A stretch of DNA of 63,986 nt, filler included, from Conidiobolus incongruus B7586 (lineage: Eukaryota): assembly GCA_000697335.1 (NCBI GenBank). It is 6 parts of 6 records of this genome, joined end to end, with 100 filler letters (N's around TTAATTAATTAA, not from the genome) between each part and the next. Parts side by side here need not be neighbours in the genome. Positions count along the whole stretch, not along the records: positions 62,292 to 63,986 come from JNEM01006102.1; 5 more parts are not named here. The stretch is one strand, 5' to 3'. The position numbers were made by a program, and so were the translations under genes. How positions within the stretch are numbered: position 1 is the stretch's first letter; the number at the start of each line of letters is the position of its first letter. The notes beneath the pieces were generated by a model that was not told where the DNA came from, made no database searches, and worked only from the letters and a program-made list of their open reading frames with translations. Positions 17,006-63,986 of this stretch are shown here, in pieces.

Positions 17006-18640
17006 ATGAGTGCTTCAAATATCGATGTGAATGCAGAGAACGCCAACTTTGAGAAAAAATCTAATCAGTTTAATAACCAGCTTGAAGTAAGGGAACCAAG
17101 GAGCCCTGCAGTCGTGCGAAAACCTAGTGAATCCATTTGGAAATTTCAGTTAAGGCGCTTGTTTGCCACTAGGAGAATTGAAGATCTGCTGGCTGAAACT
17201 CAGACTGGTGGTCTGAAGGCTACGCTCACTTGGTACCAGCTACTCGCCCTCGGCATTGGTATTATCATTGGAACGGGTATCTTTGTGTATACGGGAACTG
17301 TTGCCGCCAATAATACGGGTCCTGCTATTTCTTCGGCATTCGCTATTGCCGGTGTTGTGTCAGCTTTATCCGCTTTGAGTTTTTCCGAATTGGCTAGTAT
17401 GATCCCGGTCGCAGGATCTGCCTACACGTATGCTTATGCTACTATGGGTGAGTTAATCGCTTGGATCATTGGATGGAATTTAATTTTGGAATATATGGCT
17501 GGTTCTGCAGCAGTTGCAGTAGGCTGGAGCTCCTACATGGTTACTTTTCTCAAGCGTATTTCTCCTCTCCAGCCTGCCGAAGCAGTTATTAATGGCCCTC
17601 TCAAATGGAGTCAAGAAACTTTGAGCTTTGAAGTAACTTCTAACGTCATTAATATTCCAGCTGTTATCATTGTACTTGCTATTGGGACCCTACTTGTCAT
17701 CGGAACTAAGGAATCTGCCTGGGTTACATCTATTATCGTCGCTATTAAAATTATAGTGGTATTACTCTTCCTTATTGTTGCTGGGCCTTACGTTGACACA
17801 TCTAGATGGCATCCCTATTTGCCTGAAGCAACTGGCACCTATGGCAAATACGGGGTAGGTGGTTTATTCAAAGGAGCTTCAATTGTATTCTTTGCATATA
17901 TCGGTTTTGACTCGGTATCGACTGCCGCCCAAGAAGCAAAGAATCCCGGACGAGATATGCCTATCGGTATTCTTGGCTCTTTGACAATTTGTACCATACT
18001 TTATATTGCAGTATCTATGGTCATGACGGGAATTGCAGACTATACAACACTCGGCACTTCAGATCCAATAACTCAAGCGACATCCAATTTGGACAAACCT
18101 TGGCTCGATGCAATCATTGCATTCGGAGCAGTAATGGGATTGACAAGTGTAATGCTAGTTCAAATTATGGCTCAAGCTCGTGTGTTTTACAGCATGGGTC
18201 GTGACGGCCTACTCCCATCAGTCTTCTACAAAGTGCATCCCAGATTTGGAACTCCATGGATCTCGACAATAATCATTTCAATCATTGTAGCAATTATGGC
18301 AGCTATCCTCCCCACCGAATTTTTGGGCGAAATGACGAGTGTTGGCACGTTGACAGCTTTCTTTTTCGTGAATATTGGTGTAGCTGTTCTTAGAATTAAA
18401 GCACCCAGCCATCCCCGAAGATTTAAAGTGCCTTTTGGACCATACATCATTCCTCCTCTTGGTGCAATTAGCTGTCTCTTCCTCATTGGAGTGTCTTCGG
18501 TAGATACCATCTATCGATTGCTAGGATGGATTGCAATCGGTTTAATTGTTTATATTTGCTACAGTAGAAGATATTCTAAAATCAATCATCCAGAAAAATG
18601 GATAGACATTGATGTGCCTCCTGCAATGGATGCACATTAA
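17006..18640 (+). CDS. APC-superfamily amino-acid permease (CAT/YhdG-like), 544 aa
   Basis: Intronless ORF with about 12 or more hydrophobic segments; motifs GIIIGTGIF, ELASMIPVAGSAY, FFAYIGFDSVSTAAQEAKNP, ARVFYSMGRDGLLP. Confidence 0.93.
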   Translation: MSASNIDVNAENANFEKKSNQFNNQLEVREPRSPAVVRKPSESIWKFQLRRLFATRRIEDLLAETQTGGLKATLTWYQLLALGIGIIIGTGIFVYTGTVAANNTGPAISSAFAIAGVVSALSALSFSELASMIPVAGSAYTYAYATMGELIAWIIGWNLILEYMAGSAAVAVGWSSYMVTFLKRISPLQPAEAVINGPLKWSQETLSFEVTSNVINIPAVIIVLAIGTLLVIGTKESAWVTSIIVAIKIIVVLLFLIVAGPYVDTSRWHPYLPEATGTYGKYGVGGLFKGASIVFFAYIGFDSVSTAAQEAKNPGRDMPIGILGSLTICTILYIAVSMVMTGIADYTTLGTSDPITQATSNLDKPWLDAIIAFGAVMGLTSVMLVQIMAQARVFYSMGRDGLLPSVFYKVHPRFGTPWISTIIISIIVAIMAAILPTEFLGEMTSVGTLTAFFFVNIGVAVLRIKAPSHPRRFKVPFGPYIIPPLGAISCLFLIGVSSVDTIYRLLGWIAIGLIVYICYSRRYSKINHPEKWIDIDVPPAMDAH

Positions 18641-20972: not shown

Positions 20973-22525
20973 ATAAGTTTAAAATTAAAAATACTTATAT
21001 TTTTACTAATAACTTAATTAATATTTAATAAAATAAACTTAAATTAAATAATTAAAATCTATTATATTTATTAATTATATATATTATTAAATAATGATAT
21101 TTAGTTATTAATTGGCTAAAATATAAACCTTTAAATTTTACCTAGGGTAAATTATAAATTTGTAGGTTTTTAGTGATAAAAAAAAATTAAAACTTAATAT
21201 ATCTACCTTTAACTTTTTTAACTTCTTTAAGTTTATAGGATATAAAATCAATTAACTTTTTACACTAAGAAAAGTTAATCTTGTTCTATACTTCTTAAAC
21301 ATATTTCTAAAGTTGATTTAAATTTTTTATTAGGGGGAAAACTTTAATAGCTTTTTTAATTAATCTTAAAGGTGTTTAATTAGATTAAAGTTTAAAAATT
21401 AAAGAAGCTATTTTATAACTATTATCTAGTTATTTTTAAGTTATTTGGTAATAGAAGTTATAATATAATAAAAAGCATTATCTTACTAGAAAATAATATC
21501 AGATTTATTTAACCTATATTATTTAATAGTTTTTTTCAATTTATTATTTAGAATACTTTAGTACATTTTAATATTAATTCCCCTATTAACTTTATAAAGG
21601 TATTTTACATCTAAAGATAATATATATCCCTAAACAATAATTAACTTATTATTATACTTTTAAGTAAAATTAATATAATGGTTATAAAGTAATTCTATAT
21701 TTTTTCTAAAGCATTTAGCTTTTTTATCAAATCTACTAAAATATATTTTTGTTTCATTAAACTAAATAACTTTATTTTAATTAGTTTTAATTTAATATTA
21801 GTGGTGATATTTAAATTCCTATTTAACTTTACAGTAGGATTTCTTTAGTTAAAGGTGTTTTTTCTTAAAGTATAAGTGGTATCTATGTTAATATAAAGTA
21901 TATATAATAATATCAATGCTAACTAATATTCTTGTATAGTTTTATAGTCCTTGTTATATTTTTACAATAGTACTACACTTACCTATATTAATTAACTTAT
22001 AGATATACTTCTTATCATATTTATCTATGATTTTAGTATATTTAAGTTTAAGTTTAAATGTTTCTTTATTGCTATTCTTAATAACTTTAACTATAGTAAA
22101 CTAACTAACACTAGTAATTTTAACAATATTATAAGTTGATTTACCTTTTTTATAAATTTAATTGATACACAAGTAGATTTTTTTAGAGAGGGATTTAAGT
22201 ATAATAATATTATTAAAAAAAATTTAGTATATCTATAAAATATTATATAAAATAATAATAAAAAAAGAAAAAAGATATAGTTATATATTGTTAAATATAT
22301 CCCCTTATCTCAAAAACCCATAAATTTATGACTTATCTTAATTAAATATTAAGGGCTAATATTTTTGCTAATAGTTTACTAAATATATCTAAATATATTT
22401 ATTTATTGTCAAATAATATACCAAATTATATATTATAGTTTTAGGTAATTTGATATTTAGAATTGTTTTAGTTATTAATGAAAATATATATATTTTTGAT
22501 TTTATGATTTTTTTATAGGTTAGTA
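20973..22525 (-). mobile_element. Hypermutated Tc1/mariner DNA transposon, copy 1 (left TIR clipped by the gap)
   Basis: Colinear with about 62390-63944; right TIR ...TTTTATAGGTTAGTA followed by TA. Confidence 0.88.
21187..22202 (-). pseudogene. Tc1 DD34E transposase relic (copy 1)
   Basis: Undoing transitions restores VIWSDETK (GTT ATT TAG TTT AAT GAA ACA AAA), FQQDNA (TTC TAG TAA GAT AAT GCT), WPPQSPDLNPIEHLW and the C-terminal KGGYTKF*; many stop codons. Confidence 0.88.
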
Positions 22526-24020
22526 TATAATTAAAGTGATTATAATTTTTTTAGTAATTAAAAAATATATTTATAAAAGAATAATCTCTGTCAATAATTT
22601 ATATTAGTTTATAAAATATCAAATTTCAGTTTTTTATAAAAACCTATTCTTTCAATATTAATTACTTATCAAAAATATAAAATTATTATATTAATAACAA
22701 AAAGAAAATTAATTCTATATTTTATGTTAATATCTTTGAATCAGATATTAATAGTTTTATTTGATTATAATTATAAAGTTTTTTAATATTGAATTTCTAT
22801 ATTATTAAATTAATATTATAAATAATTTATATAGTTTCATTTTTGATTATTATTTAAAAATAAAAAATAATTTTTAAATAACAAATGAATAACTAATATA
22901 GATAATATAATGTTTGGTTTTAATAATAAAAACTATATTTTGAATTATTGGATATTTTAGGTAATTTTTGATAAATTATTTATAATCAGTTTAAAGAAAT
23001 ATAGTTAAAAAGTTATATGACAAATTTAGACCAAATTTGGCCTATAAATATCAGGGATTTTGATTATAACATATTACTGATTTTGATTTTTATATATTAA
23101 TAAAATATTCTATATTATTCTAATCCTATAATATTTATTATAATTAAAGTTTGAACTTATCCATTTTTAATATTTAAATAGTTATTAAATTCCCAACTTA
23201 ATTTTTTTATAAATTAAATTGATTGAATTTATTATAGTTAGGTATAATACAAATATATTCAAAATAAAATTATATCTTTATAATAATATTGTTAGTTTAT
23301 AGCTATTATTAGAGAAAAATTTAAAAATTTATATTATATTTAATAATATCTGAATATATATTCTCAAAGAATAAATAAATCTTTTTCAAATTTGAGATAT
23401 TAAATAATGTTAATAATATTAATAATTTGATATTAAACTGTTGTACATTTTGTATAAAAATTAAAAATCAATTGTTTAAATAATTTATTTTGAAATAATA
23501 TTAGAAAATTGAATTTAAAATTATATCTTTAATTTGATAAAGACTAGCTATAAAAAATATCAATATATTGATTTTTTAAGTTTGATGGAATTGAAAAAAT
23601 AAAGCAATAACTCTTGTTTTATAAATTACAAAGAATATAACCAGCCTTCCTGGTAAATTACAATTGTCATAATGATCCACAAGTCAGATTCATCTATATT
23701 TATGCTCATAAAAGCATAAAAACAGCTTTTGAATACCTGTTAATATTGATTAATAACCAATGGTAATAAAAATTAGACATAAATTATTAGTTGCATTATT
23801 AACCAAAATGGAAGGTCTAAACTTATAATAAACACATCAAAACAACCTGCAATAAATTATTATAATAAGGGTAAACAAATTGAACTAATGTTTATTTGAT
23901 ATTCCAATGATAGATTTTGTAAAATAAATAATAAATTTATAAAGGGATAATGGAGATATTTTAAAAATGGTATAAATAAAATAAAACATTGAAGATTTTA
24001 ATGAATTATAATGAATTTAT

Positions 24021-24461
24021 AGTAGCGATGGAGAATAATCCTGTCAATTACTCAAGAAACTCCAATTACCACAGGATTTGAGAAGTCACATTGGAGATAT
24101 CACATTCCATGAACTAGTTGATCCTATTACTTTCCACCTGTAAGTCATTCATGTCCACAAAAATCAACAATGGAACCTAATATAAGATTATCATAAGCAA
24201 ATTAATAAACACATCCTTTTATCTTCATTTTCAAAAGTATACAATCTCTAAGTTTTCTCATAACACTCACAAAAAGTACTGAGTCGTGACGAGCGTGAGA
24301 TACTTACTTTATTCAAAGAACCCGATTCATAAGAAGCCATTCTCAACTAATTTGGTGAACCCCATTAATTTCCCCTAATTTTGTGGTAACCTGGCGATTA
24401 CCACTGGCGATTCCCCGTTTAAGCTCTAAAACCTATTTCTTCCCACGGTTACAACCCGACA
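24021..24461 (+). mobile_element. LTR-like island
   Basis: GC-richer non-coding block with TATA/AATAAA-like motifs ending ...GGTTACAACCCGACA; 5' end and TSD unclear. Confidence 0.35.
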
Positions 24462-25213
24462 ATAGCATATATGAGATAATGAAAATTTTAATGATCAAGG
24501 TAATTTGATTTATTTTGTGTGAGTTTATCTTAAATTTTTCAATTTTTGAATAGATTTTAATTTGCCAAGAGAAAATTGAAATTTGTAAAACAGTTTGAAA
24601 ATTACTCTGCCAATTTATAAGATCAATTATTTTTGACAAAAATATTAGAATTAAATTCGTCCAATATTACTAAATAATGCAGAATAAAAAGCTGGTATAT
24701 TTTTTACAAGTACAGTTAATTTTAAAATTAATAATTAAAAATATTATTATTATGATCAATAACTTTTATAAGGATAATTGGTTAAAAAATACACAATTAA
24801 TGAATTAAAATAAAAAATTTAGGATGATATAATATTTATATTTTTAGAAATAGGTTTGCATATTAATTAGGTTATATAAAATTATATATTAAATTCTATA
24901 ACACTATATTTTATATCAAAAATTATATATATTAAATATCGAAAAATGCTATTTTTAACAAATTATTAAAGTATATACTAATAAATTTGATTTTAGATTA
25001 ATACATGGCTAAAGGAAGAATGATATTATTGCAAATCAATATAGTAAGGTTTATAGATCGATTTGAATATTGAGTTTTATTTCTTAATTAAATTTTAGTA
25101 TTTTAGTAATTAATATCAACTTAACATTGTATTCAAGCTAAATAAATAAATATAAAAGGAGCTATTTCTTTTATAACGTTTCAATATTAATATTGAACTT
25201 GGAATATTGTAAA

Positions 25214-25621
25214 ATGAAATTAATAACTATATTAACTGGTTTGATCTCATCTACATCTCTGTATTCAGCTACTCCATCTGAGCCATTATCTCCTCTTATT
25301 CCTTCTCCATGTCCTTATGGTCAAGAATGGGTAAAACTACCATATGGAGGAGGTGAATGTAGACCAATTGGACCACCAGGTCCAATTGACCCAATCCCAG
25401 TTGAACCCATTGGGCCTTTCCCTGGTGGGCCTTTACCTAGACCATTACCTGGACCTATTCCTTATCCACACCCTTATCCCATTGGTATCCCTGGCCCTCA
25501 CGCTATACCTCTAGCTTCAGTTCCTGCTGGAACTGCTGGTACTCCTAATATTTATAATCCCAATCAAGTTTCAACTGGCAAACAAGGTCTTTTGAACAAA
25601 ATTTTGTTTGGCTTAAAATAA
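25214..25621 (+). CDS. Small secreted Pro/Gly-rich protein, copy 1 (135 aa)
   Basis: ATG at 25214 (MKLITILTG..., same start as its paralogue), signal-peptide-like N-terminus, one Cys pair, PGP-rich tail; TATAAAAGG upstream. Confidence 0.85.
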   Translation: MKLITILTGLISSTSLYSATPSEPLSPLIPSPCPYGQEWVKLPYGGGECRPIGPPGPIDPIPVEPIGPFPGGPLPRPLPGPIPYPHPYPIGIPGPHAIPLASVPAGTAGTPNIYNPNQVSTGKQGLLNKILFGLK

Positions 25622-28494
25622 ATGACTTTAGATGGTTACTATTTAGGTTAAGCACCATTAAATTTAACAATAAATTTTTAAAAGTTTATTTTTTATATTT
25701 TTTTCTGAAACTGATAATATGCTTGAAAGATCCGATATTAATAAATTTCTCATTTCTTCGATTCTGTGGTAATAATATTAATAAAGGTTTCTTTAATATC
25801 TTATATTTATTTTTAAATTAATATATTTAATTCAGTTAATAATTAATCAGTGAGCCAGAAAATAAATTATTTAAAAACAAATTTTATAAATTAATTTTAA
25901 TATATTTAAGACTAATAAACTTCTGATATAATCTACTCATTTTTAAGAGAATGTTTATTTAATGTTGAAATTATTTATAAAGTTGAATATATCATAAAAG
26001 AATATATTATAAATATCAAAGTATTATATTCTAAATATCTACATATATCAAAGTAAATATTAATTCAAAAAAGATAAATAAAATAAATTAATTTAATATA
26101 GAATATTAAAAGATTAGTTTAATACGGATATATTAATATATAATTTATCGGATTCAAATAAATTATATTTTTAATATTAAAGAATATCTGATAGTAAAAA
26201 TACTATATTTGAACTTGTAATTCAGTAAAGATAGGATTTTTATTTTCCTTTCGAATAATGAAATTAATGTATGAATTTATATGACAATTATAATAAATTA
26301 TATAATAAAAATATCGTTAAATTATTCAAAATTTATGATAGATTTTGTTTAATCACTTGATATAAAAAATTTCAAATAACATCGATTGAGGAGTTATATA
26401 ATAATAAATTTTAGTTAAATATAATAAACTGAATTTGAATAATTTAATAATATTTATTAAATATGAGCTTTTAGTCATATTATATGAATAATCATTGAAA
26501 ATTTAAATATGATGAAATTTATTTGAGTTTTTAATAGAAATTTTGGGATAATTTGATTTTAAAACTTATTGACTACGTTTAGCTTTGGTACTTGATCATT
26601 TATAGTAATTTAATTAGTTAAACCAAGTTTGAAAGTGAATCTATATACTTCTCAAAAATTACTTTATAAAGAGTATCACAATTACGCATATTTCCTCTTA
26701 TAGAATTAAATTAGAAAATTTTTATTTAATTGTAATGATATTCAAGCAGTCAACTTTTGTTGTATTGTTTATAAATCTTCTGGAGTTCATTTTATATATA
26801 CTAGATTCAACCTAAATCTAAACCAGTTAATAATAGACATCAATTTTTTAATGTCATTTCAAAAAATTCATGCAGTTTAATTATCTATATATCTTGGTGA
26901 ATGGTTAATTTTTAATATCATCAATTTTAGGATATTTTTCTTGAAATTGATTTATTGCAATCGTAATGATTTATTGCTTTTAATTGGGTTTATATATATA
27001 TCAATAATCATGATTTCAATTTTATAGCTTTTCAAATATTATTCAATATGATTTAATCAAGAATATACATTAATATGGTATTACGATGGTTTTATCAAAT
27101 AAACAATGTGATATATCAATCAGTTATGAATACGTTATTTAAATTATTTTATCTATTTTCTAGAAATAAAATTATATTGAGGTCCAAACATTAAGACAAT
27201 TATTAGTCAATATTATTCATTCAAATACAATAAAATTTAAAATGTTTTTAAATTATAAATTATATATATAAATCAATAGAGGAATTTTAATATATACTTA
27301 AACAAAAATATATAATTGAAACATTAATATAGTTATATAATATTTTTGATATCTATTAGATATTAATGTAATTATATAATTGAATATATTGAATTTCAAA
27401 ATTATTGCTTAAATTCAACTATTTAATCGAAATTTAATGATAATATATCTAATAAAATTCTTATAATATAAAAATCAACTTATATTAAAATCAATATTAT
27501 TGTTATATAAAATATAAAGATTTAAATATGCTTTATGTCTAAAATCATCATAATTATATATATAGAATATCCTGATATTATATATATATATATACTGAAA
27601 TAATAGACTTTATTAAATAATTTTTTAAAACAATTCATTTCCTTTTAAAACTGAGGTGAGATCAAAAGATATTTTATAACAAAATTATAGTGATAAATAA
27701 AATATATATATATAATAGAATTAAATATTTTAAATTGATTTTAAATGAATAAAATATATACAAGTGACTTCCTTTAGATCGAAATAATGCAGTATTTTAT
27801 TTATATGATTTTAAATTATTTTCATTATTCCAAGTAAGGAATCGATTTGATAATGAGATTTTTGAATCGACTGGAACAAATTATTGATTAGCCAAATTAG
27901 ACCTTATCAATATTCTATCAGTCCATGTCCAAGTGACCTCACTGTTACTCAGTCATTGCACACTTATCCCTATATATATCACATGTTACTCTGAAAAAGA
28001 GGAGTAAGTTTTTAAAAATAAATCAAACAATAAACCAAGTTAATTGTCTTTGAAATTACTTGTTTACAAAGAGTATTCATTAAAATACACATTACATTCC
28101 ATATTAGAAAAATTTTGAAACTCGTTGAGCTTTATATAGAAACTATAGCTAAATTATGACAAATGGTAAATAATTTTGTGTTATACTCTATATTATTATC
28201 AATGACAACGCACAATGAAAGCTATATATAATTTATACTACTGTTATTTTTAAATTGTTATTTTTTTAAAAACAGTTCCGAATAATTTTTGGCTGAATGT
28301 TAAAAATGTTTGAATTGAATCAATTTTTTAAAATTATTAGGCTGATTTGAAAATTAGGTTTTACTAATAAACCTAAGATTAGCATTCAATCATGATAGTT
28401 ACTTGACTATTAATTTTACAGGATATAAGCGAATATAAAAGGTGCTATACTTTAGCGGGTTTTAATATTAATATTTAATTGAGAATATTAAGAA

Positions 28495-28902
28495 ATGAAA
28501 TTAATAACTATATTAACTGGTTTGATCTCATCTGCATCTCTGTATTCAGCTACTCCATCTGAGCCATTATCTCCTCCTATTCCTTCTCCATGTCCTTATG
28601 GTCAAGAATGGGTAGAATTCCCATATGGAGGAGGTGAATGTAGACCAATTGGACCACCAGGTCCAATTGATCCAATCCCAGTTGAACCCATTGGGCCTTT
28701 CCCTGGTGGGCCTTTACCTAGACCATTACCTGGACCTATTCCTTATCCACACCCTTATCCCATTGGTATCCCTGGCCCTCACGCTATACCTCTAGCTTCA
28801 GTTCCTGCTGGAACTGCTGGTACTCCTAATATTTATAATCCCAATCAAGTTTCACATGGTAAACAAGGTCTTTTGAACAAATTGCTGTTTGGTGTATTCT
28901 AA
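28495..28902 (+). CDS. Small secreted Pro/Gly-rich protein, copy 2 (135 aa)
   Basis: Near-identical coding sequence to 25214-25621; TATAAAAGG upstream. Confidence 0.85.
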   Translation: MKLITILTGLISSASLYSATPSEPLSPPIPSPCPYGQEWVEFPYGGGECRPIGPPGPIDPIPVEPIGPFPGGPLPRPLPGPIPYPHPYPIGIPGPHAIPLASVPAGTAGTPNIYNPNQVSHGKQGLLNKLLFGVF

Positions 28903-30753: not shown

Positions 30754-31395
30754 ACTAATAATTAAAACCAAACAAATGGTTTAACTCATGCCATGAGTAG
30801 TGGCATTTATAAACTACTTAACATTCAGCCTCATACAATATGTAATATTTCCATTCAATTCCTTCAGCCTTCTAAATTCCTTTTTTCAGCTTTCAATTAC
30901 AAAACCAAATTACTAATCATTTCTATATTTAGTAATTTTACGAGCCTTTTGTAAAGTAAAACTTTTTAAAATAAAATTAAGTAATATGATTGGTGTAGGA
31001 ATGAAAATATTTTAAATGATGATTAATTCAAAATAAAAGCTCAATAAAGTGTTAATATACCATCCATATGATAATATAAAACATATCTAATACTTTATCT
31101 CAAATTTAATTTCAATATTGACAATAACTCAAAATTTTTCAAAGGATTTATCACCTATCCACATATCAATTTAATTATATCAACAAAACAATCACTATAA
31201 CAATATTGTAAATACATATTGAGAAAATACTAGCTAAAAATATTAATGAACGATGAATAAATTATAAATGTACAATTGAATATTGAAAAAAAAGTTGAAT
31301 GATTTCAATTTTATAGTGAAAATTATTATTATTATTGTTAATGTTGTTGTGATTTATAATAAGATTTTTCAAAAAAAACACGGTTGATAATAAAT

Positions 31396-31497: not shown

Positions 31498-32477
31498 TAT
31501 TATTATTATTATTATTATTATTTATTATTTATTATTAGGTAATCTAAAATATAAATAGCTGAAAAATAAGAAATATCAATACAATTGAATATGAATGAAG
31601 ATTATTCAAATGATAATATCGTTATAATGCAAAATCAACTAAATATTTATCTTGATATGTTGTTTCACAAATTTTAAAAGTTTTATTAAATATCAAAAAA
31701 ATTGAAATTTTATATTTGGTAAATTTATAAATATAAATCTAATAAGATTAAAATTGAAAATAAATATCCTTGACTATATGTCATATGATATTCCTAACTC
31801 AGTCTTAAAAATTGAATTGAATAATAAATAATTTTAAACTATCAAATTATCGCTATATTTTCCTTAATTTATGATAAAAAGAAATTATCTGTCAACTCAA
31901 GTTAAAAATTTTACTAAAAAATATTATTGAAATATACCATATTTCACAATTAATTTATTAAAAATTTGATATTTAATATTAATTTGTATATTATATATAA
32001 ATATATCCATCTATATATTAAATTTTGAATTAATTTTTATTAATATTTTATAAATTTCAATAGTGGAACAAAATAATTAGAATTGAATATATCACTATAA
32101 TTATGTGGAATATCTTGAATATATAATAATAATAATAATAATCAAAATTCAATTTTTATTTTATTTAATTTTGATAATCATATGAATAATTTATCAATAT
32201 ATATTAGTTTATGATAGTTGAAAATGAATTAGAAATTGATAGATATATTTGAAATATCAACATTTTCTCAATTTTGTATATTATTTTATAATCTCATTAT
32301 TGTTATATATTTAACCATTAAATAGTGATAATTAAAGTGGTCACAAATTCTAAAGAACGATCAATGGAATTCTTATATTAATATTTTAGTTCAACTTAAT
32401 TGACCGAATAGTAAAGTTGAACACCTAAAGACATTGAATTGAATATTTTGAAATTCAAAGCTATGTTTGAATGGTAT

Positions 32478-32805
32478 TAATATGTGCTAAGAAAGCGGTG
32501 TTTGGATTAGTTAATAAGAGAGAGATCTGGGGAATTCTAGGTATTTGTTAGAGAGGAGGGTTTTATTGGTTTAAGGTAAATGACTGGGAAAACCCAGATC
32601 GAGCACTTATACTTGAGGATAGTTGTAACTCAGGGTTTTATGTAGAGTAAATGGGATAAACAAATTTATGCGTTCTTCTGTGGCTTGTATCATCATCCAA
32701 TTAAAAGATTGAGCTGAAGTGGCTAATCTTGCGAGGGGAGAATAACCCTTATATTGGGTTGATGTAAGTATAATTGGTAGCAGAGGAGTCACCTGACTCG
32801 AGGCA
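32478..32805 (-). mobile_element. Solo LTR, family A copy 3
   Basis: Colinear with copies 1 and 2; flanks GTAT/ATAT. Confidence 0.8.
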
Positions 32806-33171
32806 ATATTATCAGTCATCATAACTGATGAATACTTAATTTGATTGGAGTGTTAACTTTGATTTAATTAAATAATAAATTAGTTTACCCATAAATACAA
32901 AAAATCAATCTGTTTTGAAAATAGAAAGATAGGATATAGATAAGAATAGCATATATGATATAACTTGATAAAATATTATAATATACTTCATTTAATCGTT
33001 AGTAATCAAAAAATTAATTTCTTAGCCTGATATTAAAAAATATTTTAATATATTTTAACATTACAATTATGAACAAATTTAATATTTCTAATTAATTGGT
33101 ACGATTGATGAATAACCAATAAAGGACAAGTTTATAAATATAAATAAATGAATTTGATAATGTTTGACTAT

Positions 33172-36905: not shown

Positions 36906-37219
36906 TGAAATGATATAATCATTAATTAAACAATGAAATATTAAGTAATGAAAAAATTCAAAAAATTTGCAACCTTTGTATGAAATAATGTTTACAATTA
37001 TTAATAAAAGACATTTTTATTAAAAAAAATTTAATAATTTCATTTAATTGAAATATTATATTAACATAGTTTTCGAAGTTCTCTAATTCCAATAAAAACT
37101 AATTACTTTGAGTGTATTCGCCTTAATTTTTGCATTAACATCATTGAAATTTTTAAATTGCTTTCACACATAGCGGTCATTTGATAGCCCATAATTCTTG
37201 AAGTCAAACTAGTTCATAT

Positions 37220-39001: not shown

Positions 39002-40492
39002 ATGATAATGAATTTTAATTATTGTAAGAATTCCAGTTTATCGATGGAAGCAAACCAAGTAAAAGAAAGCTAGAACAAAAAAATAACATCGTTGCCGTAT
39101 CTCCAATTCATAATCCTTACCTTGACGAGACTTGTAGAGCCAATCACTTTTAGTAAGGTGCTTTTTATTTTGTAAGTGATAAAGTAGTACTTTTCAGTTT
39201 TGAGATAATTATGTGTTGGATAATTTACTTGGTGCGGGATTTTGAAATCGTTACAGAAGATTATCAGATCTCATATTATGTAGGCCTTCTCAATGCTCTA
39301 TTTGCAATTAGAGAAGCTTGTACATCCATATTATGAGGATTATTGTCGTATCGCACTGGAAGGAAACCTGTCATTTTGTTCGAATTATTCGGATTGACAA
39401 TCAGTTTGTTGGTGTTTGAATTAAGTCCTAACTACACTATAGCACTGATTACTCGAAGTATGAGCGGCACTCTCAAAGGCAATATTGGCGTGGTGATCTC
39501 GATTGTTAAGGAATTTATGGATGAAACCAATTGCCTAGAAGCTTTCGGATACTTGGCTCTCTTGTTTAGATCCGGGACTGTTGTTGGGCCTTTGATCGAT
39601 CGCTTATCAAATCCCGCAATGAGATCCCCAAGTCTATTCGGGAATAATAGATCTCTGGAACGATTTCCCTACTTTATACCTTGTGCATTCAATGCAACGT
39701 CATGCTTTTTGGCATTGGTATTTGGTGCAATTCTTGAAAGGAGCTGTGAAACCTAAATATTCTAATAATATAGTAATCACTCCATTGATTAATGGATCTG
39801 ACCAGATTAGAGAACATATTGAAAATTCCAATTACAGTGCTCTCAATAATTCTAACAACTCTACAGATACTTCAATCCTAACTTCAATTCAATTAATTGC
39901 TTCTATCATTCGAATATATATTCTCATCTCAGCAATGCTCTTGTTCTTTGTACATTACTATGAAGAAACAATGATACTTTGGGGAGCACCCAGCGAACGC
40001 GAAGGTGGTCTTGGTCTCCAATCTCCTGATTTTGCAAGCTTTATGGCCGCTGTAGATACCTCAATATTCCTGATTCAATTAACATTATTTACCGTAATTA
40101 AACAAAAATTCGACATGCTGTAAATATTTCATCTCATCCTTTTATTTTTTGTGGTGTTGAAAATTTTGACATCTTTTGTCACATCCATTATCCAATTTGG
40201 ATCTAGTATAGTAATAGTCTGTTCGCTCTACATGGTTCGATCCATGATTGAAATGTTCGCATTCAGCAGTTACAACACCTTCCTTGCGAATTATATCCCA
40301 AGCAATTCTCTGCTGGGACTCGTCAATAGCATTTCCATCACCATAGCATGTATTTTCCGTGCATTTGCTCCAACTTCGGTAGGTTTTACTTTCTCGTGGC
40401 CACTTTCAAACCGTTGGTGCTTCTCTTTCAATATTCATTTCACATTCTTTGTAGTAGCTTTGATAACTTATATTAATCATCTTATTACTTAG
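39002..40492 (+). pseudogene. MFS transporter pseudogene 3
   Basis: SLPYLQFIILTLTRLVEPITF, RTGRKPVILF, LKGNIGVV and CIFRAFAPTSVGFTFSW are colinear with the intact gene; in-frame stops (for example W>TGA near 39334) and frameshifts. Confidence 0.88.
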
Positions 40493-41945
40493 TACATTAG
40501 AGATGAATCCAATTATTTTCGAATTTTGTGGATGGATTTAATAATATAATTAACAAGATTTTTATAAACAAATATAATTTTATCAATTTTATGTATGGAA
40601 AAATGGGTTAAACCATAATATAAATACAAAAAATTTGAGCTATTTAAATATATCTTATTGATATGTACACTTAAAAACTTGGCCAGATATAGTGTATATA
40701 CCTGATAATGAATAATATACATCAATAGTTCTTTCAATATTTAATTCTAAATAAAATAAATAATATAAATAATATTACAAACTGAATTTAATATTCATTA
40801 ATCATATATAAGAATTAACAAAAATTTTCATAATTTATTAATAAATCCTCAATACTTCTTAAATTCATTAATTTAATCTTACATAAAAAATCATTTATTT
40901 TTATCAATTGATATATTTTGAAAAAAATTACAAAATTTTTGCTTCAATTTATCATCCAAAATTGCCATAAGAAATCTATTATACATAAAACCAAATCTGA
41001 AATTATAGCCATACATTATTAATTTATCATTTTTTCATGTATTAATACCAAGCCCTAACACCATATTTAAACTAATTTTTACCTAAATTCTAAAAATAGA
41101 CAAGAATTATTCAATTTATTTCGCCAAACACTATGAATACATCATATTTGCAGTTTTTCGAAAATAATTAATAATAAAAATTAATTACTTAGAATGTATT
41201 CGTTCAAAGTATGCACTCATGTATTTGGAAATTATAAATAATTTGATAACAATAGCGAAAAAAGTAGTCACAATGTAGTATATAACAAAAGTGAAAAGAT
41301 GTATGCAATGAAAATATAATATTAACCAATTTAAGAATAATTGATATTATAGAAATTAAGCCCTTAAATTTACTTCTCTTTTCACATATTTCAATAAGAT
41401 GCATAGTTATGTATTAAGGGTGAATATTATTAATCTTGCATTTTTTTAATACCTAAATTTGGAGAGATATTAAAATTTTAATTATATTTTAATTTGAAAT
41501 TCCATGAAAACTCAAAAAGAATTTTGACAATGTTTATACTGAAAATTCAATAAAATTGTAATATTTTATAATTTAAAACCAATATATTTTTAATACTTTT
41601 TTTTATTATTGTTATACTCAGTATTATTTTAATTTTAATCTCATAAATATAAAATATTTTCAATTATTTTTTTAAATTAAAATTTACTCAATATAGAAAT
41701 TTTAATCAACCACGTTTTATTAATTACTGTATAAAATTTCCAAAATTTGAATTGTTGATGAAATTAATTCAATTAAGCCTATCTTTGATTTGATATAAAA
41801 GAGATTAAAATCTTGAAGAAAAATATAAATTATTTAATTCTAATAAATTCAACTGAATACAAGCATAAAATTAACAAGATTGATTATAGATTTATTTTAT
41901 TATCTATTTAAATTTAATCAATAAAAATTAAATAATAATTTAATT

Positions 41946-43503
41946 ATGTCACGGAATTCTACCAACAATAAACCAAGTTCTTCAAGTTCTACAATAGTGA
42001 ATCAAGTTGGGGAATCTAGTACCGAAGAAATTCAAAAGTGTAATCCTCTACCATATCCTCAGTTTCCAATTCTGGTGTGTGTCAGATTCGTTGAACCTAT
42101 TGCTTTCACTATGGTATTTCCTTTTATGTACAAGGTAAATTATTTAAGACATTCATATTATTCAGTACTAATGATTTCAGATGGTAGAAGGGTTCGGCAT
42201 AGCCAAAGACAATACCCAAATTGCATATTACGCAGGACTATTGACATCTGCATTCGCAGTTTCAGAAGCTAGTACTTCCATATTTTGGGGTGTGTTGAGT
42301 GATAGGATCGGTAGGAAACCCGTTGTATTGTTTGGACTGTTTGGAACTGCACTAAGTTTGTTCGCGTTTGGCCTCAGTCCCAACTTCACAGTGGCTTTTG
42401 TTGCGAGATGTATGAGTGGTCTTCTGAACGGTAATGTCGGCGTTGTCAAGTCTATGGTTGCCGAAATGACAGATCAAACTAACAGGGCAGAAGCTTTCGG
42501 TTACCTTTCCCTCATATTTGGTTTGGGATTAATTGTGGGACCCGCAATTGGCGGATTCTTGTCAGAACCTGCTGATACGTTCCCCTGGCTGTTTGGAAAA
42601 GTTGAACTCTTGAAGAAGTACCCATTCTTTTTGCCTTGCGCCGTAGGATCTGCTCTATGTATCGGCGCAATGATTTTTGGTGCATTCTTCCTCGAAGAGA
42701 CCTTGGAGTCTAAGCGTAAGAAGTTATCTGAAGCCTCCCCACTTCTGGAGGATGCAAACGCCACGGAACCTCTCGTAGGTGCTCAGAATTACGGCGCTGT
42801 GGAATGCCCACCCGAATCTGTTGAGAATTTGTCAAATTTAGCTCTCATTAAAACTTTCGTTCTCATCAAAAAGATCCCTCTCAATGCATGGTACGTCATC
42901 TTCAGCTACGCTCTCCTACTAATGTTCGTAGTGATGTTCGACGACACCATCGTATTTTGGGGCGCTACGAAAGCTGAGTACGGCGGATTTGACCTCAAAC
43001 CGAAAGCTTTGGCAACTATCTTCATTTTTGGAGGCTTATCCATGTTTGTGATCCAATTCACAGTCTTCACCAAATTCAAACAAAAGTTCGGCATTTTGAC
43101 CATTTACCAAAACATTTACATCCTCTTCGCAATCCTGTGCATCCTGACACCATTCGCAACTTCTGTAGCACCTGTCGGATCTATTTGGGCCAATGTACTG
43201 ACGAATTCCTCATACATGGTCCGAGCTATGCTGGGTCAATTCGCTTTTAATATATGTAACGTTCTCCTTGTCAATTCGTCACCTAGAAATTCTATGCTAG
43301 GTCTCATTAACGGCGTGTCGCAAACTCTATCGTGTATTTCCAGAGCTGTTGCACCCACCGTCGCAGGCTATATATTCTCGTGGTCTTTAGTCAATGGTAT
43401 TGGATTCCCCTTCGACATTCATTTCACTTGGTTCGTCATCGCTTTTGTAGCACTTGCCAATCATATTTTAACTCAGTTAATTAAGAATAATCAGGAATGT
43501 TAA
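41946..43503 (+). CDS. MFS transporter (ZIFL/TetA-like drug:H+ antiporter type), 503 aa; exons 41946-42134 and 42181-43503
   Basis: 46-nt GT-AG intron with CTAAT branch joins the two ORFs in frame; MFS motif A WGVLSDRIGRKP, GLLNGNVGVVKS, GLIVGPAIGG. Confidence 0.92.
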
Positions 43504-44926: not shown

Positions 44927-46392
<1,466 letters not shown>

Positions 46393-47464
46393 CTTTTCCT
46401 TTGTTTATTATTATGTTAGTAATTAAATATATTTATAAATAAATATAAATATAGATATAAATATATATTTATTTAATATTGAATAAAATAAAATTTATAA
46501 TTGATAGATAATTAAAATCTAAATTCTTGGTAATTAAGAATAATTTATATAATTTTTAATTTTTGATTGTGGGAATATGGGTCATAAAATTAATTAGTTT
46601 AATTTCGTTAAGCATTTGGATGAACTACGTAAAAATACCAGAATTGATCCATTATACATTTTCCAAATAATAAATTCATTTACAAATTGGGAAATTGGAC
46701 AATTTTCCTTATTTTCAGTAAATTTGGTAAAATTTTTTGCACAGTTATTATAATATTACAGTTTGAACAGTTTTTTATATCATTTTCACTGTACCTATTT
46801 CTGATTATAACTAAGATTATGATAACATAATCTAATTTTGAGATTATCAATTTTAATCCCAAATTGAACAAAATAATTTTTACACGTTTTAAATATTGCG
46901 GAAATATGATTAAATAATTAATGTAAAATTTAATAAAAACAAATTTGCAGGAATTGGAATAATAGATAAAGCTTATGAGGATAGTAATATTATATTGTGA
47001 TAATGCTTCCATTAGTTGAATTATTTTATTTCACAGTATATATATTTCTTTAAATTTCAAACTCAATATCATCAAATTCGAAGTTTTTGGATTAATTGGA
47101 TTTAAATACGAAATTAATTTGTATATATTAAAAATTTGATTATAAGAAATATTCCAAGTCACAATTCAATGCCCAATGTAAATATAAACAATATTTTATA
47201 TGAATATTTAATAATGATAATAATGATAATAATGATTTATACTTTGAAATTATAATCTATTATTTTTTTAAATTTATTATTTTAAATTCTTAAATCATTA
47301 TGAAACTGAATAAAGACTAAAATGTGGCAAAGAATAAATATTGTATCATATTTATCATGAGTTTAATCAATATAAATAAATTATATATAATAAAAAACCC
47401 TTAATTCTTTATTATTATATATTAACCAATAATTTTTATACTTAACAAAATTTTAATTAACATT

Positions 47465-47734
47465 ATGGTCAAATTATCAACATTTACCTTGTTTCTAACT
47501 ACTTGGAGTTGCGCATTCGGTGCAACTATTAATCCCACGAAGCCTTCGGATGTAACAGAGCCCAAACAAGTGTCTGAAGCTTCGGTGGTTCAAGCAATCA
47601 CTCAAGAAATTAAACAAGCTTTGGACAAAATCGACAAAGACAAAGACGATCTTTTGAAGAATTTCAATGCAATACTTGCTAGTTGGTTCCCAGCTACCGC
47701 AGCTGCGAGCGAATTATCCAATATTATGAAATAG
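47465..47734 (+). CDS. Small secreted protein, 89 aa
   Basis: Signal-peptide-like N-terminus; coding-like GC in an AT-rich background. Confidence 0.75.
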   Translation: MVKLSTFTLFLTTWSCAFGATINPTKPSDVTEPKQVSEASVVQAITQEIKQALDKIDKDKDDLLKNFNAILASWFPATAAASELSNIMK

Positions 47735-48786
47735 GACAGGTGATGGTGAATTATTTAGATTTAAGTGTATTATTTTAAAATAAATATTCATTATTTATTA
47801 TTATTGATAAATAAAAATTAACACTATTGCACTCAAGCAATCTACTAAAAATAATTTATTTAATAATAACATTGAAAGTTTAGTTGATTGTAAAGATATA
47901 TATCGCAATCAAACTGTCCATTTGATATTAAACCAAAAATTTAAACTATACATTGTATATTTAATCCAGATTACTTAATTGAAGATGAAATTAAGTAATT
48001 TGAATATAGATTTCTTTAAATAATTGAAATAAAACGATTGTCAAATTGATAATTAGCATTATTTAACCAATATGAATATCCAAATCAATTAAATATATAT
48101 TTTGATATAATAAATATAATTTTGCTTACATCAATTGCATCTAAAATATTCAGTATATATTAATTTTATAGAGATTGGATTATTGTATATAGTATTAAGG
48201 ATTAACATTGTTCACTTGGATAATTATCAAGTAGAATATCTAAAATCTTATTAAAATATTTTGATCAATATATAAACCAATGAACTTGATAAAAAGTTAT
48301 AAACAATCAAATATAATTGTGGCTGTGACCAACAAAATTACCCAATTTGGATTTATTTAATTCATCAATGAAATCACAAGTTTTTTAAGGCACTGTACAA
48401 TTCAATAATCTTATAAAAAACATTTTAGTAAATATCTAAGGTAACTTAGTCAATCCGAATATATTATCTAAAATGCAATATATATTCCTAATATTATTAT
48501 TTATATAGAATTCCTCTTGTATTTAACAATTTTTTAAACAATATTATATTATTCAATTGTAAATTGGTTCAATTTTTTTACTAATTTTTGGTATCAATTT
48601 GAAAAACAAAATAATTTTTTTATAAAAATTTTATATGAATAAATTATGGCAAAGGTCACAATTTGTGAGATATTTAAAATAGTATTTATATAAATAGAAC
48701 TATCTAAATAGTTGTAGTTTAGAAATTTGCTTTGTTCAAGTTTTTGCAGTAGTGAAATACTAATCGAAAATTAAAGATTTCATAAA

Positions 48787-49068
48787 ATGGTTTGTTTTAA
48801 TAAAATCGCTTTAGTCTTAACATTATTAGGTTCAGGATTGTATTGTAATGCCAATTCCCTTAATGGTTTGGAACGTCGTGATACTCCTTTAGACAGTCAA
48901 CAGACCAAATTGAATGCACTCTTGGATAAATTCAATGAATTGCTGAGTAAATTCAATGTGAATGATCCCACTCAGCAAAGTAAGATGGCTCATGCAATTC
49001 AAACTTCTTTCTCCCTACCTGAAAGAGAACTTTTGGCACAAGCTTTTGGCAATTCCGGTTTAAAATGA
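48787..49068 (+). CDS. Small secreted protein with putative Kex2 site, 93 aa
   Basis: Signal peptide, LERR|D, amphipathic helical body. Confidence 0.75.
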   Translation: MVCFNKIALVLTLLGSGLYCNANSLNGLERRDTPLDSQQTKLNALLDKFNELLSKFNVNDPTQQSKMAHAIQTSFSLPERELLAQAFGNSGLK

Positions 49069-50004: not shown

Positions 50005-52218
50005 CATCAATGTTATAGGTAGTTTGTCATTAGGAAATTCCAAGAACAAAGGACGCATAGGAGGGATACCGGTATTGGAAGCTTCAAAGAATAAGGCATA
50101 CCAATAGGGTAACAAGGCATATCTTGATCTGATAGCATGACGAACCATTGGAATGTGATCTTCTTGAAGTAACCAAGGCTCTCTTCTCTTAGTATCGATA
50201 TGAGCATGAGCTCTGAAGAAAGGTTGGAAAGCACCAGCTTGATACCAACGAACCATTAAGTCGCTACTGGGATCACCAAAGAATCCGCCTACATCAGCAC
50301 CACTGAATCCAATACCACCCAAACCTAAGCTTAATAACATGGGAACTGAGGCTTGTAAATGTCCCCAATTAGCTGCATTATCACCAGTCCAAATAGCACC
50401 ATATCTTTGAGTACCAGGAAAGAATGCACGACTGAGAACAAATGGACGTCTATTAGGATTTTGGCGCTTGATTTGACCAACAGCAGTGGAACGATGCATC
50501 AAAGATCCATAAAGATTGTGGATTTCTCTATGTTCAAGAGTTCCATTGTTATGTAAAACATGCTTGTGCATGGTGATTTCAGGTCCGTTGAATACAGAAG
50601 GTTCATTCATGTCATTCCATGTGTATAGGTATTTAGTTGATTTATCATATTTATCAAATCGGAATTGTTCAGACCACCAATCACAAACTTCATCCCTAGT
50701 ATAATCTAACCAACTGGAGCTACCGGGCCAACACCATCCATCGAAATCAGATTTGTGTTCATTTTGAACAAAGTAACTCTTTTCCGTAGCCTCTGTGTAG
50801 ATTCTGTACCCATCCTCTCGCTTGATGTGGGGGTCAACAATGGTGACCATTTTACGACCCAATTCTCCAAGAGTGTTTTGCATCAATACAGGATCAGGGA
50901 ATTTGACAAGGTCCCAGGTAAAATATTTCTTACCATCGGTGTGCTCGATATCTAACCATAAAACATCGTAGGGAATGTCATATTCATCGAATTTCTTGTT
51001 GACAGTTAGCACATCATCCTGATCAATATAATTCCATCTACACTGGTGATAAGAAATAGAGAAAGAAGGAGGAAGAGCAAGGGTTCCGGTGAGTCGAGTG
51101 TATTGAGTGACAATGTCTTTTGGTTGGTTACCCAAGAAAACAAATAAGTCGACGATACCAGATTCACTAATCCAGTGAGTTTGAACTTCATTTTTAGGTT
51201 TTTGAATGTCAACCCACATCTCTGCACTATTCATCCAGAAAACACCAGCTGCAAGATTTGGATTGTGTCCTAAAGCGAATGGAATGGCACCATATAAGGC
51301 CATTGGAGAGTCTAATTCGTATTCAAAAACATCCAAGTTGTAGAGACGGTAAGGTTCGTCGTAGTTCCCTTCTGATCCATCGGTGGATTTAAGACTGAGT
51401 GAGCTTGCATGTTCTGGAAGACCATAAACATGCTCAATACTGTGAAAAGATACATCAAGACCAATAGAAGAGGGACCATTGGGTTTTAAATCTCTATGCC
51501 CGTTAAATGTTTCTTCCCAAAGGTTTTGTTCTAATTCAGAATTATTGGAATTATTACCTTCATTAGAATCCGATTTATCTTGAGCTTCTTGTTTTTCGCG
51601 ATAATGTTCAAAATTGAATAAATTCTGGTCATTAAAGCTTAATACAAGTGTATTTCCTTTATAAAACTGTAATTTGAAAGGATCATAACTGATTTTAACT
51701 TGAAGCTTAAGATCTGGAGAATAAGAGATGATGTAACCTTGAGAGCCGTCAGCTTTAGCTTGAAGATTATCAGAAGACTGGACTTTAGGTTGGCTTGCTA
51801 AAACATGACGCTCTAAATCTTGAAATCTAGGTTTAATAGGATTATATTCGTCAATTATCACTCTAAAAGAATCGCCTTGTAAAGGAGTTAGTTTCAATTT
51901 GAAAAGAGCGTCATTGTTTTTGTTTTTGATTTGAGCTTCGAAAGCCCCTTCATTTTTCCATTGTACAGTATCTTTAAGAATAGCATAAGGAGATTTGGCC
52001 TTATTCTCACGAATAGATTTAGCCAATTCACGATTACGTTTACAAAAACCAGAATCGTTACAACGTTTAAAATCTTCTTTCTTAACAGCTTCAGCTATTG
52101 AAAGAGATAAAATTGTCAATAATATGAAATAAATAAGTTTCCTAGTAAAAGAAACGCTTTTACTAGTCATCTTACTAAATTGAGGCTCGCCTTGTTTAAG
52201 TGCAGCCAAAACTTCCAT
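50005..52218 (-). CDS. ROT2: ER glucosidase II alpha subunit (GH31), 3' end lost in the gap; the true start may be the ATG at 52170
   Basis: AVKKEDFKRCNDSGFCKRNR, YGLPEHA, PYRLYNLDVFEY, WLDIEHTDGKKYFTWD, catalytic WNDMNEPSVF, WTGDN, FFRAHAHIDTKRREPW. Confidence 0.95.
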
Positions 52219-62291: not shown

Positions 62292-62374
62292 AATCAAATT
62301 TAATTATATTTATATTTATAGCTTAATTAATTCCTAATTTATTTAATCTAAATTTAAATATAAATATTATTATA

Positions 62375-63944
62375 CATTAACCTATAAAAGTGAGTTATAA
62401 AATCAAAAACATTTATATTTTTACTAATAACTTGATTAATATTTAATAAAATAAACTTAAATTAAATAATTAAAATCTATTATATTTATTAATTATATAT
62501 ATCATTAAATAATGATATTTAGTTATTAATTAGTTAAAATATAAACCTTTAAATTTTATCTAAGGTAAGTTATAAATTTATAGGTTTTTGGTGATAAAAA
62601 AAAATTAAAACTTAGTGTATCTACCTTTAACTTTTTTAACTTCTTTAAGTTTATAGGGTATAGAATCAACTAACTTCTTACACTAAAAAAAATTAATCTT
62701 GTTCTATACTTCTTAAACATATTTTTAAAGTTAATCTAAATTTTTTACTAGGGGGAAAACTTTAATAACTTTTTTTAACTAATCCTAAAGGTGTTTAATT
62801 AGATTAAAGTTAAGAAATTGAAAAAACTACTTTATAACTATTATCTTATTATTTTTAAGCTATTTAATAGTAAAAGCTGTAGTATAACAAAAGGTATTAT
62901 TTTATTAGAAAATAACATTAGATTTATTTAACTTATATTATTTAATGGTTTTTTTCAATTTATTATTTAGAATACTTTAGTATATTTTAATATTAATTCC
63001 CTTATTAACTTAATAAAGATACTTTACACTTAAAAATAATATATATCCTTAAATAATAATTAACCTACTATTATACTTTTAGGTAAAATTAATATAATAA
63101 TTATAAAGTAGTTCTATATCTTTTTTAAAGTATTTAACTTTTCTATTAAATCTACTAAAGTATATTTTTGTTTTATTAAATTAAATAACCTTACTCTAAT
63201 TAGTTTTAATTTAATATTAGTAGTGATATTTAAACTCCCACCTAGTTTTATAGTGGGATTTTTTTAATTAAAGGTGTTTTTTTTAAAGTGTAAGTAGTAT
63301 CTATATTAATATAAAGTATTTATAATAGTATTAGTATTAATTAATATTCTTGTATAGTTTTATAGTTCCTGTTATATTTCTACAGTAGTACCACATTTAC
63401 TTGTATTAACTAACCTACAAATATACTTTTTATTATGTTCATTTATAATTTTAACACACTTAAGTTTAGGTTTAAATGTTTCTTTATTGTTATTCTTAAC
63501 AACTTTAACTATAGTAAACTAACTAACACTAGTAATTCTAACAATATTATAAGTTGATTTACCTTTTTTATAAAGTTGATTGATGCACAAATAGATTTTT
63601 TTAGAGAGGGATTTAGGTATAATAATACTAATAAAAAAAATTTAGTATATCTGTAAAATATTATATAAAATAATAACAAAGAGAGAAAAAAGATATGGTT
63701 ATATATTGTTAAATATATCCCTTTATCTCAAAAACCTACAAATTTATAACTCACATTAGTTAAATATTAAGGGTTAATATTTTTGCTAATAGTTTACTAA
63801 ATATATTTAAATATATTTATCTATTATTAAATAATATACTTTAATTATATATTATAGTTTTAAGTAATCTAATATATAATTGTTTTAGTTATTAAGTAAA
63901 ATATATATATTTTTGATTTTATAACTTACTTTTGTGGGTTAGTG
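62375..63944 (-). mobile_element. Full-length hypermutated Tc1 DNA transposon, copy 2 (1570 bp, TA target duplication)
   Basis: Left TA|CATTAACCTATAAAAGTGAGTTATAAAATCAAAAA and right (reverse complement) TA|CACTAACCCACAAAAGTAAGTTATAAAATCAAAAA terminal inverted repeats; transposase relic inside. Confidence 0.92.
62605..63620 (-). pseudogene. Tc1 DD34E transposase relic (copy 2), about 338 aa ancestrally
   Basis: (M)PKSLS..HTH-like N-terminus, KHGGGSIIVWGC, FQQDNAPCHT, WPPQSPDLNPIEHLW and DSMP..KGGYTKF* are recoverable by undoing transitions; the D (62899-62901) and E (62794-62796) are 34 residues apart. Confidence 0.9.
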
Positions 63945-63986
63945 TATTATAACTTATAATTTTATTAAAATATATTTTAACTTTAT

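Follow-up and report, generated by a model that had tools for sequence, protein, structure and literature searches.

RIP-like C-to-T hypermutation of a Tc1 transposon in a Conidiobolus genome

Two decayed copies of a Tc1 transposon in a Conidiobolus genome raise the question of whether repeats are targeted by C-to-T hypermutation in a fungus outside the Dikarya, and by what kind of process. Signatures at CpA and CpT have been associated with RID-bearing ascomycetes and those at CpG with basidiomycetes (Amselem et al. 2015, PMC4352252; Horns et al. 2012, PMC3318451), and among 10 Dikarya genomes the CpA/CpT type was encountered only together with RID-class genes (Amselem et al. 2015, PMC4352252). 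A kingdom-wide screen detected repeat-induced point mutation (RIP) signatures only in ascomycetes (Badet and Croll 2025, PMC12543289), and all eight of its eight Zoopagomycota, C. coronatus included, were scored as no-RIP. In Zoophthora radicans, 24.2% of the genome has been reported as RIP-affected on the basis of indices, with caveats stated (Stajich et al. 2024, PMC11105155), and DNA transposon load is said to vary widely among Conidiobolus genomes (Muszewska et al. 2017, PMC5751038). Our literature search found no report of RIP-like mutation in Conidiobolus, and a C. coronatus genome paper never mentions 'RIP'. The initial annotation of this DNA pointed to such a system outside the Dikarya, an idea that is not entirely new: RIP in the Entomophthorales was proposed in 2024 from dinucleotide indices, and the evidence here is direct and at the level of alignments.

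The window, that is, the whole stretch of 63,986 nucleotides that was analysed, is made up of six contigs with GC contents of 16-26% per contig. The spacers between contigs consist of 44 N, TTAATTAATTAA and 44 N (for example 11238-11337, and the four other joints), and the GH31 and RPL2 frames that run into spacers are cut by assembly. The two transposon copies, A and B, are located on separate contigs, where A opens a contig of 28.9 kb and B fills most of the last one, which is 1.7 kb long and without genes. A Conidiobolus-like host had been suggested, and this is borne out by the identities of the glucosidase II alpha (GH31) protein, by the best match of an amino-acid permease (Table 1) and by a quick GH31 tree of 19 chosen rows, in which the protein of the window is sister to that of C. 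coronatus (SH-aLRT 100) with an Entomophthorales clade around them (98). Judged from these protein comparisons the host is a Conidiobolus (Zoopagomycota), distinct from the named C. coronatus record. Beyond C. coronatus, the permease matches listed consist almost entirely of unnamed or bacterial-type APA antiporters (50-54%), a single one coming from Geosiphon, and an old transfer of this gene from bacteria is possible; at 70% identity, a match labelled Bacillus cereus MAG is perhaps a mis-binned fungal contig.

An origin of the mutated copies in a contaminating ascomycete, or as an assembly artefact, is extremely improbable. Such an origin might be considered given the short, gene-free contig of copy B, the placement of the host markers on other contigs, and a tie of the copy A contig to the host that is drawn from like composition and a shared repeat of about 330 bp and not from a tree of its own genes. 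That contig, however, has a GC content of 24.9% against 25.5% and 25.2% for the marker contigs, and the repeat is common to it and the permease contig; no ascomycete name appears among the 120 GH31 matches listed, and the abundance of the element in sequencing runs (see below) fits the main organism. Contamination by an ascomycete, which the annotation had named as one of the findings that would overturn its reading, is thus contradicted by GH31, by the permease and by the likeness of the copy A contig to the marker contigs.

Table 1. Positions of the transposon copies, host markers and control sequences in the window
Feature	Position	Strand	Remarks
Tc1 copy B, complete, 1570 bp, C>T hypermutated on both strands	62375..63944	-	TA each side, inverted ends, GC 16.9%, 0 CpG
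Left-hand TA of the copy B target site	62373..62374	.	sequence
Right-hand TA of the copy B target site	63945..63946	.	sequence
Left long inverted repeat of B, IR/DR layout	62375..62590	+	12-bp direct-repeat motif, outer 62390, inner 62565
Right long inverted repeat of B	63729..63944	-	motifs at 63929 and 63754
Dead transposase gene of Tc1 copy B	62605..63620	-	ATA at start, 20 in-frame stops (mapped part), one single-base frameshift
Tc1 copy A, first ~31 bases missing at contig start	20973..22525	-	GC 15.9%, 0 CpG; TA at 22526-22527
Dead Tc1 transposase gene of A	21187..22202	-	23 in-frame stops in main frame; single-base frameshift near 3' end
Flank of copy A, CpG-free with normal CpA	22528..24026	.	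0 CpG vs 8.6 expected, substrate 1.43, product 0.92
Proline-rich gene duplicate, first copy, control	25149..25611 (gene 25142-25621)	+	frame open, not hypermutated
Proline-rich gene duplicate, second copy, control	28432..28892 (gene 28492-28902)	+	frame open, not hypermutated
~330-bp G-rich solo-LTR-like repeat, control	32475..32806 (+), 9877-10209, 13849-14144		71-74% pairwise, not hypermutated
Glucosidase II alpha (GH31), host marker	50032..52218	-	identity of 85% with Conidiobolus coronatus and of 57% with Entomophthora muscae and with Neoconidiobolus
Amino-acid permease, host marker, intronless	17006..18640	+	C. coronatus is best named eukaryotic match among those listed (70%; its matches 69-71%)

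The inverted arms of copy B are about 230 bp long and 72% complementary (236-nt comparison), and their outer 35 bp differ from each other by four transitions and no transversions. For homology searches the translations of both copies were read with X at stops. The copy A translation matched an intact 338-aa protein, P0127, at a phmmer E value of 2.4e-44 in a search with 126 matches; P0127 carries HTH_Tnp_Tc3_2 and DDE_3 domains, its second D and its E being separated by 34 residues (DD34E). Copy A is colinear with P0127, and copy B is linked to P0127 through copy A. Five frames read in this way (three of B and two of A) gave no transposase domain in Pfam, apart from one weak match to HTH_7 at E 0.24, and a word-index search with copy B returned no relatives, which were found by the full HMMER search alone. 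By its homology to intact relatives, on which membership rests, the element is assigned to the Tc1 (DD34E) DNA transposons, and this homology, together with colinearity, the TA target and the inverted ends, sustains the earlier identification. The element resembles Tc1 elements with IR/DR ends in having TA as its target, a transposase laid out over 338 codons, and long inverted ends that contain two direct repeats, and differs from them in that both Conidiobolus copies are dead and their catalytic motifs degraded. No close unmutated DNA relative was present among 72 metagenome loci, the best (L003) reaching 54% over 512 columns.

Copies A and B are 88.5% identical over 1583 columns of one alignment. 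In a comparison of the whole copies over 1554 columns, 1382 positions are identical, and the rest hold 153 transitions, 11 transversions and 8 gaps, so that 153 of 164 substitutions (93%) are transitions; these are split into 85 C/T and 68 A/G, and both strands are about equally affected. Several statements of the initial annotation are confirmed by this comparison, namely that the copies are colinear, that a 320-nt hand alignment (21883-22202 with 63301-63620) holds 37 transitions and 2 transversions, which is exact, and that the C and G residues lost are not the same in the two copies, B retaining 47 C and 36 G lost from A, and A retaining 38 C and 32 G lost from B. The reported absence of CpG also stands, with none in either copy where 11.2 and 9.8 are expected from composition, as does the conversion of codons to TAA and TAG: in-frame stops are exclusively of these two kinds (16 and 7 in A, 14 and 6 in B) with no TGA, and all five conserved Trp codons are TAA or TAG in both copies. 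The ATA at the start, described as a former ATG, sits at the Met position of P0127. Copy B has a RIP product index of 1.39 and a substrate index of 0.44, copy A has 1.27 and 0.50, and both copies pass the cut-offs for the two indices (product at least 1.1, substrate at most 0.75; PMC6714961). The composite RIP index is at least 0.48 in all 22 of the 500-bp windows inside the copies, and outside them it exceeds 0 in 24 of 577 such windows, with a maximum of 0.51.

The direction of change was determined against intact relatives at 67 codon columns, each conserved in no fewer than 60% of the 46 full-length sequences that were retained by length from the 126 matches of the copy A search. At these codons copy A has 29 unchanged, 34 that differ by C>T/G>A only, none in the reverse direction and 4 others; for copy B the numbers are 28, 34, 0 and 5. 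In a shuffled null, codons with C>T/G>A changes only averaged 9.1 and never exceeded 18, against the 34 observed. Of 84 positions where C or G is obligatory, 46 are gone from A and 43 from B, with 32 in common, and part of these shared losses may be older than the split between the copies. Transversions between A and B amount to 11 in 1546 columns (0.7%); set against these losses, this indicates that the copies are young and yet have about half of their cytosines gone. Over the coding match, eight intact metagenome relatives have 46-57% GC and 46-86 CpG, compared with 18-19% and no CpG in the two copies.

The sequence context of the changes can be read from sites visible in the two copies, a count that skips sites lost in both and so understates the fastest contexts. 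Here 57 of 86 CpA, 85 of 175 CpT and 8 of 60 CpC sites are polymorphic; CpA and CpT together differ from CpC (Fisher p 3e-9), CpA exceeds CpT (0.66 vs 0.49, p 0.008), and the 5' base has little effect (fractions of 0.39-0.59). All 153 A/B transitions are at non-CpG or undetermined-context sites and none is at CpG, whose rate is not rankable from two copies as every CpG has already been consumed. CpG was formerly a target, since the copies read TAT, TGT, TGC, TAC, CAC or TAA at positions where P0127 has Arg. The order of contexts is CpG (all gone) > CpA > CpT >> CpC. Of the targets proposed at the outset (CpA, CpT and CpC), the first two are upheld, the third is largely spared and CpG must be added; with CpC largely spared, deamination in all contexts, as the annotation had phrased one option, is not supported. 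Runs of CC appear to have been consumed stepwise from the 3' C (CCA>CTA>TTA), and erosion that starts at the 3' C would explain why Trp codons became TAG or TAA and never TGA.

APOBEC/AID-like enzymes read mainly the 5' base, and a cut-and-paste Tc1 element has no single-stranded replication intermediate. The pure C>T spectrum of the copies, with its context rule on the 3' side, would suit a cytidine deaminase of this or another type that attacks the transposon irrespective of methylation; the slight influence of the 5' base, the near-equal load on the two strands and the mode of transposition make this explanation very unlikely.

The excess of transitions is not a property of repeats in the window at large, as other repeat pairs have transition to transversion ratios (Ts/Tv) of 0.5-2.3. 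The proline-rich duplicates, 3.3 kb apart, are identical at 434 of 463 positions (94%) with 14 transitions and 13 transversions, two MFS pseudogene pieces have 31 and 25, a short repeat pair at 29.6/31.4 kb has 11 and 11, and the ~330-bp repeat, found on three contigs, gives ratios of 1.7, 2.3 and 1.5. This repeat, for which 'LTR-like' is a reading from size and ends only, retains 5 CpG in each copy and a GC content of 38-40% amid surroundings of 20%. A further pair (49423-49743/61767-62097, Ts/Tv 0.5) is of low complexity and was excluded from the pooled controls. The Ts/Tv of the element differs from that of four pooled control pairs at a Fisher p of 2e-15, and the ratio of transitions per C/G site to transversions per site is 66 for the element and 2.7-4.8 for five control pairs. 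Non-coding DNA of the window has 20.7% GC, and among 49 overlapping 1.5-kb windows of non-coding DNA there are 11 that match the element in AT content, yet they keep 4-12 CpG and a substrate index of 1.16-1.67. Since neither control pairs nor GC-matched windows resemble the element, a genome-wide AT bias, which the annotation had conceded would undo its interpretation, is excluded, and its description of the neighbouring DNA as normal applies both to genes and to GC-matched non-coding DNA.

The C>T hypermutation is real, strong and, within the window, confined to the transposon. At the end of copy A the loss of CpA and CpT stops sharply, the substrate index being again 1.27 within about 100-400 bp, and the losses are not clustered by strand (p 0.22 for either copy in a runs test). 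The flank of copy A (Table 1) is one of three stretches that are poor in CpG and normal in CpA, the others being 14150-15100 (1 CpG vs 10.2 expected) and 16000-16900 (2 vs 13.7); these are possibly CpG-methylated patches, and in the flank the methylation may have spread from the element. Plain CpG methylation with slow spontaneous decay, acting on old copies against an AT-biased background, would agree with these depleted stretches, with the total absence of CpG from the copies and with the low GC of non-coding DNA. It is nonetheless highly improbable, as the A/B transitions lie at sites other than recognizable CpG, the few transversions mark the copies as young while half of their C/G positions are gone, the 11 GC-matched windows have kept CpG and CpA, and older repeats remain at 38-40% GC. 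Decay restricted to CpG is largely refuted by the non-CpG counts.

The pattern extends to the family of the element. Four runs of one sample contain 73-76% of its words, and contigs on copy B number 39,061 of 1,490,999 in run X1 and 29,871 of 493,904 in run X2, mostly at 90-99% identity. Transitions make up 393 of 418 variable places in X1 and 387 of 411 in X2 (94%); in X1, 194 of the 268 C/G of the covered stretch read T/A in at least 3% of depth, and among the 40 of 427 variable rows listed 36 are transitions and none is at CpG. Both runs stem from the same sample, possibly the source of the window, and so extend the finding to the family and not to an independent organism. Runs X5 and X7, from other samples, yielded no contigs on the element, which does not establish that it is lacking there, and no RNA run was among those listed for its words. 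The Tc1 family is high-copy; this is as far as the claim goes, because summed contig depth is no copy number.

What process is responsible had been left open between a RIP-like mechanism and deamination of 5-methylcytosine (5mC); the data lean towards the second and do not separate the two. The account that we consider somewhat better than even is that a DIM-2/DNMT1-class methylase marks the silenced Tc1 family and that deamination follows, where we infer the methylation, the class of enzyme and the targeting to silent chromatin. The family would be silenced and its cytosines marked at CpG, CpA and CpT, and the marked cytosines would be deaminated to thymine on both strands. Targeting would proceed via the silent chromatin of the transposon and not by repeat pairing. 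Two layers can be seen, a CpG loss that spreads into the flank and a CpA/CpT loss that halts at the element end. Methylation is favoured because the complete loss of CpG reaches 1.5 kb into the flank of copy A while CpA is normal there, as expected of spreading methylation, and targeting by transposon chromatin because the linked, near-identical proline-rich gene pair is spared. The Pfam family PF00145 also takes in the tRNA methylase DNMT2. PF00145 proteins are reported in all entomophthoralean sets (PMC11105155), DIM-2 is reported to favour CpT for methylation and to occur, outside the Ascomycota, in Phycomyces (PMC13297926), and in the zoopagomycete Linderina 5mC is located in repeats (PMC11258239). 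The accessible portions of PMC11258239, PMC7862722, PMC13297926, PMC12387763, PMC10538959 and PMC11969663 hold no methylase inventory for Conidiobolus.

Several observations count against the methylase reading. The sharp boundary of CpA/CpT loss is closer to RID-type mutation, which is confined, than to the DIM-2 type, which spreads (10.1101/115501), and the ~330-bp solo-LTR-like repeats are transposon-like and yet unmutated. Dim2 of Zymoseptoria tritici has a different spectrum, CpA/CpT signatures elsewhere accompany RID-class genes only (in the 10 Dikarya genomes mentioned above), and the Zoopagomycota are described as poor in 5mC (PMC11258239).

RIP operates within limits of about 400 bp in length and 80% identity. 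True RIP, in which DNA homology between repeats would be sensed in the zygospore stage and answered with a burst of mutation by a RID-like or other methylase-like enzyme, is unlikely, although it would fit the sharp confinement to the element, the rank of CpA as the most polymorphic surviving context, and spared repeats that are short or diverged (~330 bp at 71-74%, and 463 bp) and so near or below those limits. The GC content and indices of copy B also match the means of Neurospora RIP regions (GC 16.0%, product 1.59, substrate 0.44; PMC6714961), and index-based RIP and RID-like domain layouts have been reported in Zoophthora and Entomophthora, though the authors state that these candidates are not readable as RID homologues (PMC11105155). 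RID/Masc1 homologues are described as limited to Dikarya, an exception in a chytrid being ascribed to probable bacterial transfer (PMC5751038), and none was present among the 13 window proteins scanned. The proline-rich pair speaks against RIP in that its 360-bp core, with 6 mismatches, has kept 48 CpA/TpG and 48 CpT/ApG, 96 targets in total, but as a test of RIP it is of borderline length, and youth, selection or gene conversion may explain its sparing. RIP also sits poorly with the attainment of high copy number by the family and with the lack of strand clustering, which many rounds would erase. A more specific version, homology-sensing RIP that operates in Conidiobolus without a RID orthologue, either predates the Zoopagomycota-Dikarya split or evolved twice, and has its own CpG/CpA/CpT signature, must be regarded as doubtful.

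Compared with known systems, the hypermutation works like RIP in its outcome, while membership in RIP is not established. It shares with Pezizomycotina RIP (Neurospora, RID pathway) the C:G>T:A changes on both strands, a GC content of about 16%, indices in range and confinement to repeats, and with its CpA+CpT variant in Botrytis, Sclerotinia and Magnaporthe (PMC4352252) the choice of CpA and CpT as targets; it differs in that Conidiobolus lies outside the Dikarya, CpG is also fully consumed and a linked gene duplicate is spared. Zymoseptoria tritici Dim2 mutation (PMC8016269) and the DIM-2 arm of RIP in Neurospora, as it affects old repeats of the genome (10.1101/115501, PMC11969663), offer a parallel in their >90% C>T changes at non-CpG sites of transposon DNA. 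In Zymoseptoria, Dim2-dependent mutation is mitotic, with >95% C>T in methylated repeats and >98% at CpA with CpG spared (PMC8016269), whereas in Conidiobolus CpG is gone and CpA and CpT are both heavily hit, so the near-exclusive CpA pattern is absent. Hypermutation in Pucciniomycotina (PMC3318451, PMC4352252) is likewise repeat-associated, C>T and accompanied by CpG loss in fungi without RID, but it is a CpG-only process there; the visible differences between the Conidiobolus copies are non-CpG, and their excess is not limited to CpG or TpCpG as in the Basidiomycota. The index-based 'RIP' of Entomophthorales concerns the same order and has a positive composite RIP index, and the portion of that report available to us gives 1-kb window indices only and no value for Conidiobolus (PMC11105155), whereas the copies here were aligned, polarised and internally controlled.

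Repeat-confined, non-CpG C>T mutation in Conidiobolus is thus as strong as in RIP regions of Neurospora, against the no-RIP score given to the Zoopagomycota. The top 8 tetramers of that screen (PMC12543289) are enriched 1.08-1.74-fold in the copies over AT-rich non-coding background, under its bar of 2-fold, and tetramer screens would therefore probably overlook the process where genomes are AT-rich. If the interpretation is true, mutagenic defence against transposons would be older, or reinvented more often, than has been assumed; in a fungus that can be cultured and forms zygospores, one could then investigate which methylase acts and whether sex is needed.

Other genes of the window are of some interest in themselves. 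The proline-rich tandem pair is short, probably secreted and without a Pfam match, and each gene has 2 CpG where 17-18 would be expected, a shortfall that may be due to codon use (GC3 0.17). The MFS genes consist of one intact transporter and two decayed paralogues, one of them inverted (35641-37522 (-), 39250-40500 (+) and 42175-43503 (+)), and the decay of the paralogues has an ordinary Ts/Tv. A low-complexity His/Asp-rich protein at 29995-30780 (-) has no Pfam match, and there are an F-box/LRR-like gene at 6260-7690 (+), a kinase in several exons at 44927-46190 (-) and two small secreted-looking proteins at 47426-47734 and 48775-49068 (+). An intronless gene at 33288-34298 (+) encodes a SAM-dependent carboxyl methyltransferase of the SABATH type (Methyltransf_7, E 4e-28), a family best known from plants.
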